This document shows positions 3,329 through 42,490 of a stretch of 64,000 bases of DNA, piece by piece. Both the position numbers and the translations under genes were made by a program. This DNA comes from a virus (taxonomy: Duplodnaviria > Heunggongvirae > Uroviricota > Caudoviricetes), in the IMG/VR virus record IMGVR_UViG_2744054962_000001. One strand, 5' to 3'. Under the pieces are notes generated by a model. That model made no database searches. It saw only the letters and a list, made by a program, of their open reading frames with translations, and was not told the origin of the DNA. Numbering within the stretch: position 1 is the first letter of the stretch; every line of letters begins with the position of its first letter.

Positions 3329-5362
3329 ATGACCCAAGTCGCGAAGAAAATTCTGGTGACGTGCGCGCTGCCGTACGCTAACGGCTCAATCCACCTCGGC
3401 CATATGCTGGAGCACATCCAGGCTGATGTCTGGGTTCGTTACCAGCGAATGCGCGGCCACGAGGTTAATTTCATCTGTGCCGACGATGCCCACGGTACGC
3501 CGATCATGCTGAAAGCGCAGCAGCTTGGTATCACACCGGAGCAGATGATTGGCGAAATGAGTCAGGAACACCAGACTGATTTCGCAGGCTTTAACATCAG
3601 CTATGACAACTATCACTCGACGCACAGCGAAGAGAACCGTCAGTTGTCTGAGCTTATCTATACTCGCCTGAAAGAGAACGGTTTTATTAAAAACCGCACT
3701 ATCTCTCAGTTGTACGACCCGGAAAAAGGCATGTTCCTGCCGGATCGTTTTGTAAAAGGCACCTGCCCGAAATGTAAAGCGCCAGATCAATACGGCGATA
3801 ACTGTGAAGTCTGCGGCGCAACATATAGCCCGACTGAATTGATCGAGCCGAAATCGGTGGTTTCTGGCGCTACCCCGGTAATGCGTGATTCCGAACACTT
3901 CTTCTTTGATCTGCCTTCTTTCAGCGAAATGTTGCAGGCATGGACCCGCAGCGGCGCGTTGCAGGAGCAGGTGGCGAACAAAATGCAGGAATGGTTTGAA
4001 TCCGGCCTGCAACAGTGGGATATCTCCCGAGATGCGCCTTACTTCGGTTTTGAAATTCCGAACGCGCCGGGCAAATATTTCTACGTCTGGCTGGACGCGC
4101 CGATTGGCTACATGGGTTCCTTCAAGAATCTGTGCGACAAGCGCGGCGATACCACCAGCTTCGATGAATACTGGAAGAAAGACTCCACCGCCGAGCTGTA
4201 CCACTTCATCGGTAAAGATATTGTTTACTTCCACAGCCTGTTCTGGCCTGCCATGCTGGAAGGCAGCAACTTCCGCAAGCCGACCAACCTGTTTGTTCAC
4301 GGCTATGTGACGGTGAACGGCGCGAAGATGTCCAAGTCTCGCGGCACCTTTATTAAAGCCAGCACCTGGCTGAATCATTTTGACGCCGACAGCCTGCGTT
4401 ACTACTACACTGCGAAACTCTCTTCGCGCATTGATGATATCGATCTCAACCTGGAGGATTTCGTTCAGCGCGTGAATGCCGATATCGTGAACAAAGTGGT
4501 TAACCTGGCCTCCCGTAATGCAGGCTTTATCAACAAGCGTTTTGACGGCGTGCTGGCAAGCGAACTGGCTGACCCGCAACTGTACAAAACCTTTACTGAT
4601 GCCGCTGAAGTGATTGGCGAAGCATGGGAAAGCCGCGAATTTGGTAAAGCTATCCGTGAAATCATGGCATTGGCTGACCTGGCTAACCGCTATGTCGATG
4701 AACAGGCTCCGTGGGTGGTGGCGAAGCAGGAAGGACGCGATGCCGATCTGCAGGCGATTTGCTCTATGGGCATTAACCTGTTCCGCGTGCTGATGACGTA
4801 CCTGAAGCCGGTACTGCCGAAACTGACTGAACGTGCAGAAGCATTCCTGAATACAGAACTGACCTGGGATGGTATCCAGCAACCGCTGCTGGGCCATAAA
4901 GTAAATCCGTTCAAGGCACTGTATAACCGCATCGATATGAAGCAGGTTGAAGCACTGGTGGAAGCATCCAAAGAAGAAGTGAAAGCCACAGCCGCACCGG
5001 TAACTGGCCCACTGGCTGACGACCCGATTCAGGAAACTATCACCTTTGACGACTTCGCCAAAGTTGACCTGCGCGTGGCGCTGATTGAAAACGCAGAGTT
5101 TGTAGAAGGTTCTGACAAACTGCTTCGCCTGACGCTGGATCTCGGTGGTGAAAAGCGTAATGTCTTCTCAGGCATCCGTTCCGCTTATCCAGATCCACAG
5201 GCACTGATTGGTCGTCACACCATTATGGTGGCTAACCTGGCACCACGTAAAATGCGCTTCGGTATCTCCGAAGGCATGGTGATGGCTGCTGGCCCTGGCG
5301 GAAAAGATATCTTCCTGTTAAGCCCGGATACCGGTGCTAAACCTGGCCACCAGGTTAAGTAA
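3329..5362 (+). CDS. metG: Methionyl-tRNA synthetase
   Basis: ORF track starts at 3200 but conserved N-terminus [25 protein letters not shown] begins at ATG 3329; 677 aa; C-terminal tRNA-binding domain present. Confidence 0.97.
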
Positions 5363-8953: not shown

Positions 8954-9349
8954 ATGACCGTTAAACGCGAAAAACTGACAGTTGATGTTTACTATGCCTC
9001 TGAAACCGCCGAAGGTAAGAATGTGGCAAAAATCACCGTTGTTACGTACAACACCGAAACTGGTGCCGAAGTCCAGGCCAGTACGATCGTGCGTAAAGGT
9101 GATGCCTCCGGCGGCGAGTACGCGACTCAATACCAGTCCATTCTCGATGCAACTGACCCGCTGCTGCTGAAAATCGAGAACTACTTCCGCCAGGTTGATG
9201 AGGAGGTGTTTGAAACCATGATGAATATGGTTAACACCGTATTCGCCTCCAGCCTGAATACCAACACTACCTGGATTGGTCAGTACGGCCTGCGCATTAC
9301 CTCCGGCATTCCTGCTGACACCTTAATCCCTGAAAGCGTATTCGCTTAA
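8954..9349 (+). CDS. Hypothetical protein (131 aa)
   Basis: ATG 8954 with GGAGAG RBS; upstream part of track ORF 8831..9349 overlaps the terminator. Confidence 0.55.
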   Translation: MTVKREKLTVDVYYASETAEGKNVAKITVVTYNTETGAEVQASTIVRKGDASGGEYATQYQSILDATDPLLLKIENYFRQVDEEVFETMMNMVNTVFASSLNTNTTWIGQYGLRITSGIPADTLIPESVFA

Positions 9350-9361
9350 TCCTCTTTGAAT

Positions 9362-9385
9362 GGCGCGTAAACCGCGCCATTTTCT
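9362..9385 (+). terminator. Rho-independent terminator
   Basis: GGCGCGTAAACCGCGCC hairpin followed by ATTTTCTT. Confidence 0.55.
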
Positions 9386-9392
9386 TATGCCC

Positions 9393-9408
9393 GATAACAA
9401 TTTGTTTT
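9393..9408. promoter_or_regulatory. Operator-like palindrome (GATAACAATTTGTTTT)
   Basis: Near-perfect member of the AAACAAnTTGTTT family. Confidence 0.45.
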
Positions 9409-9466
9409 CTGCCTTATCTGATTTGTGAAAATGATTTCACTGAAGCAACTTAATAAGGAAACCATC

Positions 9467-9844: not shown

Positions 9845-9988
9845 TGGGCGATTTCAAGAAACGCCTGAAGGAAAGAGCCGAGATGGTCAGAAAGCAAAAC
9901 GCCTCTTCTGTCATCAGATACGCAAGGCAGTTTAGTCGCAACAACAAATCAGTTGAGGAAAAGATCCTTAGCGTAATCGGTCGATAAT
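9845..9988 (+). CDS. Possible small protein (47 aa)
   Basis: ATG 4 nt after upstream stop; below track size cut-off; no other support. Confidence 0.25.
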
Positions 9989-9992
9989 TATT

Positions 9993-10016
9993 AAGGCCAC
10001 CAGCATTGGTGGTCTT
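9993..10016 (+). terminator. Hairpin, copy 1 of repeated ATTAAGGCCACC..GGTGGCCTTAAATGAC element
   Basis: Inverted repeat AAGGCCACCAGCATTGGTGGTCTT; near-identical copy at 10464. Confidence 0.45.
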
Positions 10017-10125
10017 AAATGACTTTTAATAACCGAAGGTTAGTTTGAAACCTGGCTATCAACTTCCAGAACCTTTCTTGTGTATTCAGCCTGTATTAAC
10101 TTCTTTTATGCCTTATCTACACTGC

Positions 10126-10157
10126 GATAATTACACCAACAAGAAAACAACATGTTT
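10126..10157 (+). promoter_or_regulatory. Conserved early promoter/operator copy
   Basis: GATAATTACACCAACAAGAAAACAACATGTTT; lies inside track ORF 10045..10458, so the true start is downstream. Confidence 0.6.
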
Positions 10158-10176
10158 ACGCAGTGAGGATATGCTC

Positions 10177-10458
10177 ATGACTGATTTCACCATTACCCCT
10201 AAAGCACAAAATGTATTCCTTGAATCATGGCTGGACTTGCCGGAAACAGAACAGCAAGAAATGGATCATGTGGATTATGACGAGCAGGTAAGCACGCGAT
10301 TCTTCCACTTTGAGGGATGCGTTTACGACATTGCCGACTTCATGCGAGATGACCGCTTCCCTGAATGGCACGCAAGCTATCCACTAAACGCCTTTGCCAT
10401 GCTGATGATCCGTGTGGATGATTCAGGGGATACCATCGACATCGGTCTGCTCCACTAA
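10177..10458 (+). CDS. Hypothetical early protein (93 aa)
   Basis: GAGGA RBS 7 nt before ATG 10177. Confidence 0.5.
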   Translation: MTDFTITPKAQNVFLESWLDLPETEQQEMDHVDYDEQVSTRFFHFEGCVYDIADFMRDDRFPEWHASYPLNAFAMLMIRVDDSGDTIDIGLLH

Positions 10459-10463
10459 AGATT

Positions 10464-10487
10464 AAGGCCACCAATGCTGGTGGCCTT
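10464..10487 (+). terminator. Hairpin, copy 2 of repeated element
   Basis: Perfect palindrome AAGGCCACCAATGCTGGTGGCCTT followed by AAATGAC. Confidence 0.5.
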
Positions 10488-10497
10488 AAATGACCAT

Positions 10498-10572
10498 CCT
10501 GTTTCCCGCAGGCTAAAAACACCAACCTCTTACCTCCAGGCAACCGACAAACCCACCTGTTCCCGTCCGGCT
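10498..10572 (-). repeat. Iteron-like repeats in reverse orientation (CCTGTTTCCCG..)
   Basis: CCTGTTTCCCGCAGGC and CCTGTTCCCGTCCGGC contain the reverse complement of the GGGAAAC core; CAGGCTACCG-type motifs shared with 6893-6960. Confidence 0.45.
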
Positions 10573-10609
10573 ACCGCAACTTTCCACTTTGACGCCTTAT
10601 TCGTACAAC

Positions 10610-10641
10610 GATAATTAACACCAACAAGAAAACAATATGTT
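10610..10641 (+). promoter_or_regulatory. Conserved early promoter/operator copy (degenerate palindrome)
   Basis: GATAATTAACACCAACAAGAAAACAATATGTT upstream of ATG 10663. Confidence 0.5.
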
Positions 10642-10662
10642 ATTTACGATAAGGAATTAATC

Positions 10663-11145
10663 ATGAATTTTATCGCTACTGTAAACGCACCCGCACATGG
10701 CAATATCGCTGTAACGTTCTCTGACATTGAAAAACGAGTACTTGGTGCATGGCGCGACAATGAGACGGTAGAACTGTCAGCACAAGAAAAATGCATTATT
10801 GCACGCGACATCATTGGCAATCGTCGTTACTCGCGGGTATTTGAGAAAGCGTATGTGGTAAATTCTGGATTCGGAACGTTCGTCTTTCCGGTGCGCTCCG
10901 GGCGATTCTGCCAGTCCAAGCTGATTGAGTTCGCTACGCAGATTTCTGTCTGGATTAAAACTCAATCGTCGTTCAAATTTTCCGACGATGAAGCAGTATC
11001 GCAGGGGATGCGGATCGCCAACAATGCGATTAAATGCAAAAACATTACGTATACCGCTGGCGTTGATACATGGAAACTGTTTTGCGCTAACTTTATGCTG
11101 AATGTATACGCAAGCAACCGCATCCACATCCTTGATGGCGTGTAA
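10663..11145 (+). CDS. Hypothetical protein (160 aa)
   Basis: ORF with AAGGA RBS; followed by hairpin GGGCCAGAAACGGCCC. Confidence 0.55.
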   Translation: MNFIATVNAPAHGNIAVTFSDIEKRVLGAWRDNETVELSAQEKCIIARDIIGNRRYSRVFEKAYVVNSGFGTFVFPVRSGRFCQSKLIEFATQISVWIKTQSSFKFSDDEAVSQGMRIANNAIKCKNITYTAGVDTWKLFCANFMLNVYASNRIHILDGV

Positions 11146-11154
11146 CTGAGAAGA

Positions 11155-11275
11155 GGGCCAGAAACGGCCCTTTCTCTATAGCCACCAGCTGCCTCAGGGA
11201 AATTTTCAGAAACGGCGAGGAACGTATTCATAAGCCGACGGGAAACGGCCAGGATTTTTTCGGGAAACGGCTGCA
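11155..11275 (+). repeat. Second iteron cluster (GAAACGGC core, at least 4 copies)
   Basis: CAGAAACGGCCC, CAGAAACGGCGAGG, GGGAAACGGCCAGG, GGGAAACGGCTGCA. Confidence 0.55.
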
Positions 11276-11724
11276 TTCGCCTTTATGTAGAAAAAACATC
11301 GGGAAGCTGGTGGAATCCAACCAGCGGTTGTCGGACAGGTGAGCGGGGAAAATTATGATGACTTTCGTCACCTGAGACATCCAGATTTCTTTCGTAGCGT
11401 AATCACATACGTGATTAAGTGGTGTGATTATGTGAAAAATCACGCGCACATAATACGCGAGCGGATACAGAACAACACAAAATGCCGATCCGCGCCGACA
11501 AATAAACGCGGATCACATAGCAAGAATAAAAGCCAATGATTAGCCATACACCATAACGCAATATAACGCGATTTAAGCGCGTTAATGCGCTAAGTAATGG
11601 GTATGTACTGGTAAGGATATAAAAGCGCGTCTATGGCGTTATTTTGGCGCTTATTTTTATGTTGTTGGTGTGAGTCAAAGACAATAAAAAACGCGCTAAT
11701 GATGGCGCGTTATGGTGGGAGTAT

Positions 11725-11755
11725 TGGAAACGAAAAAAGCGCCCATAGTGGGCGC
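11725..11755 (-). terminator. Rho-independent terminator (hairpin GCGCCCATAGTGGGCGC, copy 1)
   Basis: 17-bp palindrome at 11739-11755 followed on minus strand by T-run; just after stop of 11762..11992. Confidence 0.65.
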
Positions 11756-11761
11756 TCGATT

Positions 11762-11992
11762 TTATTTATGTAAACTGATTTCAAATCCCATTTCTACAAA
11801 CGCTTTTAACATTAAAAATATATCAGCGTCATTCACGTCTGCTTTTTTTCGCTCCTGGTCGCTCAATAAGTCAATTTTGCGCGTCGTTTCATCTATAAGC
11901 TCGACTGCGCGCCCAGCGTAACCAGCGATCCCAGCGATGCGATTAACAAAATATTCATTGCGCACGTTAACGCCAGCGATAAGAATAAACAT
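11762..11992 (-). CDS. Hypothetical small protein (76 aa) bracketed by identical terminator hairpins
   Basis: AAGGAG RBS 7 nt before ATG; identical 17-bp hairpins on both sides. Confidence 0.55.
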   Translation of the reverse strand: MFILIAGVNVRNEYFVNRIAGIAGYAGRAVELIDETTRKIDLLSDQERKKADVNDADIFLMLKAFVEMGFEISLHK

Positions 11993-12005
11993 GATTAAGC
12001 TCCTT

Positions 12006-12026
12006 AAAAGCGCCCATAGTGGGCGC
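12006..12026 (-). terminator. Rho-independent terminator (hairpin GCGCCCATAGTGGGCGC, copy 2)
   Basis: Identical hairpin at 12010-12026 plus T-run, after stop of 12040..12690. Confidence 0.6.
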
Positions 12027-12039
12027 CAGATTCCATTAA

Positions 12040-12690
12040 TTACGCTTTGAAAGCATCAGCCAGATAGTTATAGAAATCATTTTTAATAAAGCGATATTGC
12101 TGCGTACCAGCTTTTGCGCTTCCCATTCCTTTGACTTTCTCAACAAGTCCAAGACGTTCGCAAAGATTGATAAGCTGGTTGGCTTGAGTGTATCCTGCGT
12201 CTAATTTTATTTCGTTGGCTTTTTTCGCTTCATTCATTAAATCGAAAACAGCTCCATTTGTGAACGTCTCGATCTCGTCGTTAATCATATCGATTAATGC
12301 GAATACACGAGATCCGGACATATCAGCGACGGAATAAACACACTTTCCAGCTTTAATGGATTTAACCAGATAAACCAGTTTTTCCAGAGAATAACTATTA
12401 GTCATTGCATCACGGAAAAATACTTCTGGCGCTTGTTTGCTTGCTTTGATCGCATAGTAGAAAACAGAGCATAATTTTTCGTCTTCTACTGCGTTTACGA
12501 CGTTGTTGATGAAGTAAGCAAGTTTGGTGGTTGCAGCTTGCATATTTGCTTTGTCTGCTTTTGTGTGCGTACCATTTTTATAATGTTCGTTATATGTTTG
12601 AGTTGCCAGATCTGCTTTTTCGCGCAGCTCGTCGGATACAATGGCAGCAGCTTCAATGATGGACTTTTTAGAAATGATAATGTTAGCCAT
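12040..12690 (-). CDS. Hypothetical protein (216 aa), AT-rich island
   Basis: Start moved to ATG 12690 (AAGGA RBS, 8-nt spacer) from track start 12699. Confidence 0.6.
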   Translation of the reverse strand: MANIIISKKSIIEAAAIVSDELREKADLATQTYNEHYKNGTHTKADKANMQAATTKLAYFINNVVNAVEDEKLCSVFYYAIKASKQAPEVFFRDAMTNSYSLEKLVYLVKSIKAGKCVYSVADMSGSRVFALIDMINDEIETFTNGAVFDLMNEAKKANEIKLDAGYTQANQLINLCERLGLVEKVKGMGSAKAGTQQYRFIKNDFYNYLADAFKA

Positions 12691-12985
12691 GATGGACATC
12701 CTTACGAAAAATTAAAATGAATTTATTTTTTACTGTCGTTAGCCAGCTCGCTTTCGACGAGTTCAATTATCAATACGTGAAAAAAGATTGCAAGTGTTTT
12801 TTTTAAATATTCTGCAGGGATGAAAGTCCTAGAAATAAAAGCGAGATCGTCGAAGGTGTTCCCTAAATAAATAATCAATTCGGGCCTTTAACCTTATATA
12901 TTTATACGGGGTGGCATTGAAAGAGTTTTAAATGAATGGCATGTAAAATAATAACCGGACTTAGCCGGTTATTACCCTTATAGAT

Positions 12986-13510
12986 TTAAAATGGAAGGAT
13001 TCGTTCAACCCAATCGAAGAAAACAAGTATTTTTCTGCCGTCTTCTAACTTAAGAGTGACCTGGCAAGCATCAACGCCTCTTGACACCCCTTCTATTTCA
13101 CGACCGTCTGTCATGTAGACCCTTATAGATTGGTCGTTTTGATAAGCCTTGCGACATATCGCAAAAAAGTCACGGCGTGATGGCTGATTGTCAACATAGT
13201 CTGGATGTATTGTTAGCCTACCTTTGAACTCGCGAGCAATGCCATCGATTACACCTGATTCAATTGTGCTAATGCGCTCAAGTGGGAGTCTTATACGATT
13301 TTCTTTATCATATGGAATCGGGCATAAATCTAGCTTATTGCGTGAAGGCATTGTCCCCTGAACGTACATGCAAAACACCTGACCGTCTTCAAGCGTGACT
13401 CTTACAGGAATGTTGTTCTTCCGCCAGAACATAAGTATGTTCTCAGCATGTTCGTAGTCTCGCGGCCAGACTTCAGCCGGTATGCCGTAGGTGATGTCCA
13501 ATGTTCTCAT
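12986..13510 (-). CDS. Hypothetical protein (174 aa), AT-rich island
   Basis: Stop overlaps upstream gene by 4 nt (coupled); no recognised motif. Confidence 0.55.
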   Translation of the reverse strand: MRTLDITYGIPAEVWPRDYEHAENILMFWRKNNIPVRVTLEDGQVFCMYVQGTMPSRNKLDLCPIPYDKENRIRLPLERISTIESGVIDGIAREFKGRLTIHPDYVDNQPSRRDFFAICRKAYQNDQSIRVYMTDGREIEGVSRGVDACQVTLKLEDGRKILVFFDWVERILPF

Positions 13511-26009: not shown

Positions 26010-26013
26010 GTTA

Positions 26014-26042
26014 AAGGGTGGGCTATACGCCCACCCTTTTTG
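26014..26042 (+). terminator. Rho-independent terminator after major capsid gene
   Basis: GGGTGGGC-TATAC-GCCCACCC followed by TTTTT. Confidence 0.75.
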
Positions 26043-42427: not shown

Positions 42428-42469
42428 ATAGGTAGGTACTAACTTAATGGTGGGCATGGAACGCCCACC
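42428..42469 (+). promoter_or_regulatory. ATAAGTA-family motif plus hairpin upstream of tail fibre gene
   Basis: ATAGGTAGGTACTAACTTA followed by hairpin GGTGGGC..GCCCACC. Confidence 0.45.
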
Positions 42470-42490
42470 ATATCTAGGAGCAAAGGATAA

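Follow-up and report, generated by a model that had tools for sequence, protein, structure and literature searches.

Duplicated terminator hairpins as probable joints for small promoterless gene cassettes in SSU5-like phage-plasmids

In T4-type phages, small genes are shuffled through promoter-early stem-loops (PeSLs) (Arbiol et al. 2010, PMC2839356; Comeau et al. 2014, PMC4122927). PeSLs are repeated intergenic motifs with a terminator stem-loop that flank ORFans, a single motif being present at the empty sites of relatives, and recombination between the motifs has been shown via mini-circles, in one case within the loop (PMC2839356, PMC4122927). Here we analyse a stretch of 64,000 nucleotides (nt) from a virus of the Caudoviricetes (IMG/VR record IMGVR_UViG_2744054962_000001; hereafter the window), in which a minus-strand gene of 76 amino acids (aa), gene A, lies between two identical 17-base-pair (bp) hairpins behind a conserved SSU5-type gene, the anchor. 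We consider it probable that these hairpins are duplicated intrinsic terminators, and that promoterless cassettes placed behind the anchor use them as short sites of recombination or slippage.

PeSL shuffling is the closest described analogue of this slot, and the slot is not a PeSL. In both, repeated terminator stem-loops flank small genes in a plastic region, a single motif is found where the gene is missing, and the loss, gain and exchange of genes are proposed to arise through recombination from one motif to another. However, a PeSL is a composite of ~100 bp with a strong sigma-70 promoter, whereas the repeat of the slot is a hairpin plus a few A/T, 17–21 nt long and promoterless. The host of PeSLs is a lytic T4-like myovirus and that of the slot a temperate siphovirus-type phage-plasmid, and PeSLs occur at dozens of sites, while the slot hairpin is confined to one. 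A literature search found no description of this hairpin slot, an absence that is no proof of novelty.

Escherichia phage Cyrano (pLF82, an SSU5-like phage-plasmid of E. coli LF82; bioRxiv 10.1101/2022.10.28.514194) matches the region at 98% identity; the identity to PhiR41_1, SSU5 and several Klebsiella phage-plasmids is 81–92%. Judged by its sequence, the window is an SSU5-like phage-plasmid, of a family that includes Yersinia pestis pMT1; a 741-nt region matches 546 PLSDB plasmids from Escherichia, Klebsiella, Enterobacter, Yersinia (pMT1), Salmonella and Citrobacter. The 17-mer GCGCCCATAGTGGGCGC is present in exactly two copies in the whole window (11739–11755 and 12010–12026), with no further copy in the 64 kilobases (kb) even at two mismatches. 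None of 100 dinucleotide shuffles contained any match, 0 being expected by chance. The exact identity common to both copies is 21 nt (AAAAGCGCCCATAGTGGGCGC), and a weaker likeness (86%) extends to 35 nt. The proximal copy sits 13 nt past the anchor stop codon and the distal copy 6 nt past the stop codon of the cassette. The initial annotation had reported the two exact copies, the 76-aa open reading frame between them and its consensus AAGGAG ribosome binding site (RBS), and all of these are present (Table 1). It had also given each hairpin a T-run on the minus strand. This holds for the distal copy, whose tail carries T6 (TTTTTTCGTTTC, TTTTTT CGTTTC), but not for the proximal copy, which has just TTTT running into the AAGGAG of the RBS. 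The form TTTTTTCGTTTC is the tail of an empty site, and TTTTAAGGAG is that of an occupied one.

Relatives were gathered in two ways. Scanning viral contigs for the 17-mer gave a hairpin-selected set of 104 stretches, in which the copies were ~44–48, 247, 271–274, 307 or 496 nt apart and some stretches carried three copies. The second set was chosen by the anchor protein only, independently of the hairpin, and consisted of five species-representative genomes (GTDB) and 80 viral contigs; all counts of slot states refer to the 83 anchor-selected loci with a complete slot. The anchor is present in all relatives at 49–100% aa identity. Behind it, the hairpin stem GCGCCCA/TGGGCGC was found in 83/83 loci, 7–13 nt past the stop codon, the exception in distance being a locus with a truncated anchor (L188), where the hairpin lies 50 nt past the called stop.

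What follows this first hairpin is highly variable. The most frequent state is hairpin-B-hairpin (26/83 loci), where B is a 67-aa gene that gives no alignment with A and is thus unrelated to it. The state of the window, hairpin-A-hairpin, was found in 15 loci, and hairpin-A'-hairpin, with a 50%-identical paralog of A, in five. B and A (or A') stand together between two hairpins in 19 loci, and another five have hairpin-B'-hairpin, usually with one extra gene-less hairpin, B' being a 36%-identical relative of B. Two loci (L032/L083) have a two-cassette array with three hairpins, hairpin-A'-hairpin-A-hairpin. The slot is empty, with a single hairpin, in the remaining 11 (L031/L162, L043/L189, L119 from Buttiauxella, L167–170, L174, L191, L192 and L198). 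An apparent class with a hairpin between B and A was an artefact of an upstream ATG inside the hairpin, and was corrected. Hence n separately bounded cassettes are accompanied by n+1 hairpins, and an empty slot by one. Among named elements, Cyrano has the same slot as the window, and in SSU5 and pJN2-26 a pair of these hairpins encloses B. The pair in PhiR41_1 encloses B and A in tandem, and no third hairpin separates the two genes. Klebsiella p4727 has gene A with one loop mismatch in the hairpin, and Y. pestis pMT1 has A'. Distant relatives, with anchors ~49% identical, carry two to three gene-less tandem copies of a 44-nt hairpin-plus-spacer unit. Gene A is therefore not a conserved core gene, being absent or replaced in relatives, and the comparison for presence or absence proposed in the initial annotation finds single-hairpin empty sites with the same flanks.

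Two further loci show other changes at the slot. In E. albertii p3RM15112 (L114, 1955–2726) an unrelated 215-aa gene occupies the slot between its own matched variant hairpins (GCGCCCAAATATGGGCGC/...GGGTGC, with a 4-nt loop), and gene A and a canonical hairpin come next. This locus shows a slot that accepts larger cargo, with hairpin variants apparently duplicated together with the insertion. In the pMT plasmid of Y. pestis Harbin 35 (L110, 653–1111, junction ~1190–1220), compared with pMT1 (L111), the insertion sequence (IS) IS1541A of the IS200/IS605 family lies next to A' and replaces the distal hairpin and the adjoining noncoding DNA; it is a hairpin-associated IS at a hairpin-rich spot.

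The boundaries of change were read from sliding-window identity. When an empty locus (L031) is aligned with SSU5, which carries B, both sides are 95–100% identical and the two differ by a clean 247-nt indel made up of one hairpin plus the cassette. When L005, which carries A, is aligned with SSU5 (L003), which carries B, the flanks are 90–100% identical and the likeness is lost exactly between the hairpins. Aligning the window (E. coli-type) with L005 (Klebsiella-type) gives 92–100% identity over a stretch that begins ~40 nt to the left of the distal hairpin and takes in two-thirds of cassette A, and only 50–70% identity in the noncoding DNA adjoining the cassette. Cassette A and the distal hairpin are thus near-identical where the adjoining DNA has diverged, and the cassette has therefore moved between backbones. 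The spacers next to the hairpins are likewise combined with different cargo. The proximal spacer TTAGATGGATATA is found with A in nine loci, with B in six and with an empty slot in two, and the distal spacer CAAGATCCGCACA with A' in five loci, with B in eight and, with one base different, with an empty slot in two. Cassette A is always tied to its own distal spacer, CCAATAC.... From these boundaries, rather than from observed events, we infer crossovers within the hairpin. The exchange of A', B and the empty state, as far as it can be traced in the alignments, maps to the hairpins themselves, and the A module extends to the next terminator. That terminator is the AACGCGC..GCGCGTT hairpin at 11690–11711, which the initial annotation had listed as a further hairpin upstream; it is real, is followed by T6 on the minus strand, and marks where the segment travelling with cassette A ends on the left.

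These data have to be set against the simplest alternative, in which the hairpins are ordinary, independent terminators, bystanders at gene ends, and cassettes differ through homologous recombination in the long flanks, i.e. the anchor gene and the noncoding region. The flanks are indeed homologous over hundreds of bases, slot states follow backbone lineages at identities of at least 98%, and cassette A carries ~20–40 nt of linked DNA past its hairpin. However, recombination in the flanks swaps alleles that already exist. It leaves unexplained the n+1 hairpin pattern of empty, single and double states, the clean hairpin-plus-cassette indel and the gene-less tandem units, as well as variant loops that are common to two copies in one genome and a like pattern at a second, unrelated hairpin family (both described below). 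We therefore regard this alternative as unlikely. The proposal in the initial annotation that the gene was inserted by duplication or recombination at the terminator is supported by the empty sites, the clean indel, the B/A swaps and the three-hairpin arrays.

Several observations nonetheless weigh against exchange at the hairpins as the full account. The segment linked to cassette A reaches ~20–40 nt past the distal hairpin, to the next terminator, and therefore not every crossover was inside the hairpin; some of the swaps could have arisen by ordinary recombination within homologous flanking DNA. Backbones that are at least 98% identical mostly have one and the same slot state, and differences appear at 96–98%. 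Among pairs whose anchors are at least 99% identical, none differs in slot state except for the A/A' label within the B+A class. Turnover is therefore occasional, not rapid. The B+A arrangement lacks an internal hairpin, contrary to the n+1 rule, and can be accommodated only if that palindrome was lost secondarily. Finally, 17–21 nt is short for RecA-dependent recombination, and a phage recombinase or slippage must be invoked.

The hairpins have the features of intrinsic terminators: a GC-rich stem-loop, a U-tract 3' of the stem and a position just past a stop codon, all on the strand of the gene. The RNA fold of the distal hairpin has a 7–9-bp stem and −15.5 kcal/mol (z −4.2 relative to shuffles). 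The last hairpin of the slot is followed by T5–7 in 83/83 loci, the tail being TTTTTTCGTT in 57 of these, while internal copies have 3–5 T and then an RBS. Insertion of a cassette thus swaps the distal part of the U-tract for an RBS. The last hairpin is predicted to be a strong intrinsic terminator, and the distal copy of the window may also terminate transcription, more weakly, on the plus strand. The proximal hairpin, which unlike the distal copy was not called by the terminator scan, is likely to be a leaky terminator or attenuator, or a stabiliser of the 3' end of the anchor transcript.

In 46 unique 77-nt windows around the proximal copy the two arms of the stem are 100% and 99.7% conserved, compared with 75% for the loop and 57–80% for the flanks. 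The stem is identical even where the anchor protein is just 62% identical in the anchor-selected set, and 49% in L028 and L062 of the hairpin-selected set. Such conservation would also be expected if the palindrome GCGCCCA-N3-TGGGCGC were a sequence-specific site, either a DNA operator for a dimeric regulator or an RNA hairpin bound by a plasmid-encoded RNA-binding protein (e.g. FljA-like) that controls translation of the small gene. In favour of this, the hairpin abuts the Shine-Dalgarno sequence of gene A, and two genes upstream lies the gene for an FljA-family protein that shows a weak Hfq/LSM signal. An unrelated phage also has the palindrome, which there surrounds a TATAAT box together with a sister palindrome. 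Such a site is compatible with terminator and recombination functions. However, variants with 4-nt loops (GCAA/TTGC, AATA) occur, and one variant has lost a C:G pair from both arms, a compensatory shortening of the stem (GCGCCATTTCTGGCGC); neither should be tolerable for a dimer site with fixed spacing. It thus appears that the structure of the hairpin matters and not its spacing, which fits structural selection as a terminator better than a fixed-spacing protein operator. A binding role also does not account for the T-run that follows every copy in the direction of transcription, or for terminal and gene-less tandem copies that have no downstream gene to regulate. In addition, a 7-bp GC stem is minimal, so that purifying selection on pairing alone can explain its invariance. 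We think it quite improbable that the palindrome is above all such a binding site.

The loop varies in a particular way. It is often inverted (CTA/TAG) at either copy of the hairpin, also in complete isolate sequences. Inversions are seen in roughly one quarter of loci and in both hairpin families (TAG/CTA; GCAT/ATGC), examples being L002 3435–3451, L004 2528–2544, L112 1266, L113 1281 and, for the second family, positions 9991 and 10462 of the window. This pattern suggests recurrent template switching or recombination within the palindrome. In L156 the loops of both copies are variant (TCA/TGA), and such variants shared by the two copies in one genome, here and in E. albertii, indicate duplication or conversion between the copies.

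The transcription unit that we infer has the order promoter, anchor, hairpin, 76-aa gene, hairpin and second terminator (Table 1). Its promoter is the sole minus-strand promoter-like site between 9000 and 15000. Just 17 nt lie between the proximal hairpin and the ATG of gene A, and no promoter-like site was found in this gap, so that gene A has no promoter of its own. The cassette is therefore not the self-contained one that the initial annotation had suggested. Since a second hairpin with U6 lies beyond the distal one, the unit ends in tandem terminators. No known RNA family is evident at the slot: an Rfam search of 11100–12100 at a permissive threshold gave only a chance match to MicC (22.8 bits against a gathering threshold of 90, E 0.92), and thus revealed no longer structured RNA of which the hairpins might be part.

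Table 1. Elements of the minus-strand transcription unit in the window
Feature	Coordinates	Strand	Description
Sigma-70-like promoter	12766..12793	minus	TTGCAA, 16 nt, GATAAT, preceded by an A-tract; from promoter scan, putative function
Anchor gene, 219 aa	12040..12699	minus	phrog_1513; 216 aa if the ATGGCT start at 12690 is used
Proximal hairpin copy	12006..12026	minus	stem GCGCCCA/TGGGCGC, RNA loop CUA, then only 4 U
RBS AAGGAG of gene A	12000..12005	minus	4 nt past the hairpin T-run, 7 nt before the ATG
Cassette gene A, 76 aa	11762..11992	minus	from the open reading frame list; phrog_1585; between the two hairpin copies
Distal hairpin copy	11733..11755	minus	then U6 (UUUUUUCGUUUC); flagged by terminator scan on both strands
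Second, tandem terminator	11685..11711	minus	AACGCGCC..GGCGCGUU plus U6, 25 nt past the distal hairpin

With these elements, the slot probably works as follows. Transcription would start at the promoter and run through the anchor gene. At the proximal hairpin, with its four U before the RBS, it would be partially stopped, or the 3' end of the anchor transcript would be stabilised there, and the 76-aa gene would be expressed by read-through. The transcript would end at the distal hairpin, the second terminator serving as a backup. Each copy of the hairpin with its A/T flank offers ~17–21 nt of identity and, because each copy is palindromic, the two are both direct and inverted repeats of one another. 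This geometry would favour unequal exchange as well as deletion by strand slippage. Cassettes would then be inserted, deleted, swapped and stacked through unequal homologous recombination or replication slippage, whether the copies belong to one plasmid or to relatives that share a cell, with the n+1 pattern as the outcome. An unequal exchange between A' and A predicts an A'-hairpin-A array and an empty site, and both are observed.

In the precise excision of Tn10 and Tn5, inverted repeats bring short direct repeats together. Excision of this kind by replication slippage is attributed to Albertini et al. (1982), as cited in PMC4122927. The slot resembles these cases in that its identical palindromes have a geometry favouring the RecA-independent loss of the intervening DNA together with one repeat copy. 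It differs in that slippage accounts for loss and tandem duplication but not for the acquisition of a foreign cassette, and in that slippage here would be deduced from the arrangement of repeats.

Morons, in the usage of bioRxiv 10.1101/2022.10.28.514194 and the Hendrix/Juhala concept, are autonomous transcription units with their own promoter. Like a moron, the cassette is a small accessory gene that is present in some related phages, between conserved genes, with a terminator at its end. Unlike a moron, it is promoterless and would depend on read-through of the upstream hairpin. Repetitive extragenic palindromes and the bacterial interspersed mosaic elements built from them (REP/BIME) are many dispersed, imperfect palindromes of ~35 bp with a conserved 5' tetranucleotide, whereas here there are two copies in 64 kb, and in relatives, too, the hairpin is confined to the anchor slot.

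The likeness to integrons is one of form: the cassettes have no promoter, share one orientation, end in a 3' palindrome and follow a resident promoter. An attC site, ~57–141 bp long, has extrahelical bases and R''-L''...L'-R' boxes. One might consider a dedicated system of site-specific or single-strand recombination, in which the cassettes are attC-like or the hairpin is the target of an IS200/IS605-type or REP-associated tyrosine transposase (RAYT) hairpin-recognising enzyme. Besides the integron-like form, this is favoured by the presence of IS1541, of the IS200/IS605 family, exactly here in Y. pestis Harbin 35 pMT. However, a 17-bp perfect palindrome with a 3-nt loop is much too short and too simple for a structured attC, the cassette repertoire is tiny (four related or unrelated small genes and one 215-aa gene), and the hairpin is confined to one slot. 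Other occurrences of the hairpin in viral contigs are in unrelated contexts. No integron integrase is annotated within ~2.5 kb in four annotated relatives, and no integrase or transposase within ~2.5 kb in five relatives (including Cyrano, PhiR41_1, SSU5 and pJN2-26), the whole genome not having been scanned. The chance that such a dedicated system operates here is very slight.

The proposal that the terminators are short recombination or slippage sites can be taken further, in a form that is possible but which we hold to be doubtful. SSU5-type phage-plasmids, including Y. pestis pMT1, might carry a recombinase-free, integron-like micro-array, in which identical palindromic terminators suffice by themselves as sites of recombination or slippage, so that promoterless cassettes are captured, stacked, excised and exchanged behind a single resident promoter. 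With each insertion the upstream terminator would automatically become a leaky attenuator, an RBS taking the place of its U-tract, and the loop inversions (TAG/CTA) would be footprints of hairpin extrusion in vivo and template switching. The stem would perhaps also be kept by sequence-specific recognition.

The cassette proteins are accessory, because unrelated small proteins replace one another or are absent. For protein A, searches of Pfam, PHROGs, NCBIfam, PADLOC and PDB profiles gave nothing past phrog_1585 ('unknown'), and 81/81 homologs are annotated as 'hypothetical', all in the same plasmid family. Its AlphaFold model is poor (predicted local distance difference test, pLDDT, 65), and with this low-confidence model Foldseek gave no PDB match below E 2.9. 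The anchor has no Pfam, NCBIfam, PADLOC or PDB match, and for B, B' and the 215-aa cargo the searches of families, defence systems and structures gave nothing informative. Both SSU5 and PHROGs label B (L003 2623–2826, SSU5_119; phrog_6145) as 'MIT family metal ion transporter CorA'. This label is without Pfam support; the protein is short (67 aa), charged, helical and too small for it, and the label is probably a propagated misannotation. An external donor of the cassette was considered and rejected: the only homolog on a chromosome-sized contig (P0067) has the same SSU5-like surroundings. One may speculate, from comparison with the plastic regions of other phages, that the cassette proteins have a role in host interaction. 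Gene A itself contains a 9-nt tandem repeat that encodes (IAG)n at 11912–11938 on the minus strand (codons 19–27), and the different lengths of its homologs (70, 73, 76 and 79 aa) reflect (IAG)n units gained or lost in frame, which looks like a slippage-type polymorphism.

Outside SSU5-like elements, the 17-mer sits in unrelated contexts (P2-like phages, high-GC contigs and the promoter region of another phage), and the idea of a mobile hairpin element was rejected. The promoter-region case is L012 (2120–2220) and L088 (500–600), from an unrelated viral contig, where the 17-mer and the sister palindrome CTGCCCATAGTGGGCAG flank a TATAAT box with a gene downstream. This would be an operator-like use of the same palindrome core in a different phage.

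Upstream of the anchor in the window, the FljA-family protein is encoded at 12986–13510 on the minus strand. It has a full-length match to Pfam Flag1_repress (9e-81), its weak Hfq/LSM-like signal lies in the C-terminal part, and its gene has its own terminator at 12949–12974. The phage-plasmid thus encodes a homolog of the post-transcriptional repressor of phase-1 flagellin.

On the other side of the slot, a second hairpin pair (9991–10018 and 10462–10489) surrounds a small gene on the plus strand (9985–10494). Its sequence is TTAAGGCCACCA-GCAT/ATGC-TGGTGGYCTTAA, with the loop inverted between the copies. Among relatives, this AAGGCCACCA-N4-TGGTGGCCTT family is present as two copies 471 nt apart in 20 loci and as one copy in 61. 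Plus-strand intergenic units at 9335–9440, 9985–10175 and 10456–10668 repeat a promoter-like box (TTGACG/TTTATG ... GATAAT) and a conserved leader, ACACCAACAAGAAAACAAYATGTT. With hairpin, promoter-like box and leader, these plus-strand cassettes (9985–10668) are closer to PeSLs than the minus-strand slot is. Because the plus-strand hairpin family shows a like polymorphism of one versus two copies, the region as a whole appears to behave like a hyperplastic region.

Between the convergent genes lie ~600 nt of noncoding DNA (11146–11735) with many short GC-rich hairpins in an AT-rich background. It contains 14 terminator-like sites, compared with 4.9 expected, and ACGCG repeats with a period of ~10 bp, and has no Rfam match. 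In this noncoding region some relatives (L119, ~3790–3850, downstream of the slot, and L031) have three perfect tandem units of ACGCGCTAAA, which look like iterons or a protein-binding array. Elsewhere in the window, two strong hairpins 16 kb apart (26013–26039 and 42447–42471) have a common inner stem, GGTGGGC/GCCCACC, and a TAGGAGC (RBS) within a few bases; they may be another reused junction of terminator and RBS, or a chance likeness.

The principle that repeated regulatory hairpins can act as joints for the shuffling of small accessory genes is already established, and current views are not overturned by the slot. If the terminators do serve as such joints, this principle would extend to phage-plasmids, and in a minimal form, with a 17–21-nt terminator alone and no promoter. 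The element family is widespread in Enterobacteriaceae, including E. coli, Klebsiella, Enterobacter, Salmonella and Y. pestis pMT1, and is clinically widespread. For the engineering of these plasmids, the slot offers a well-defined, tolerated site. For their biology, it delimits a small group of proteins that replace one another (A, A', B, B' and the 215-aa cargo) and are candidates for roles in host interaction or anti-defence.

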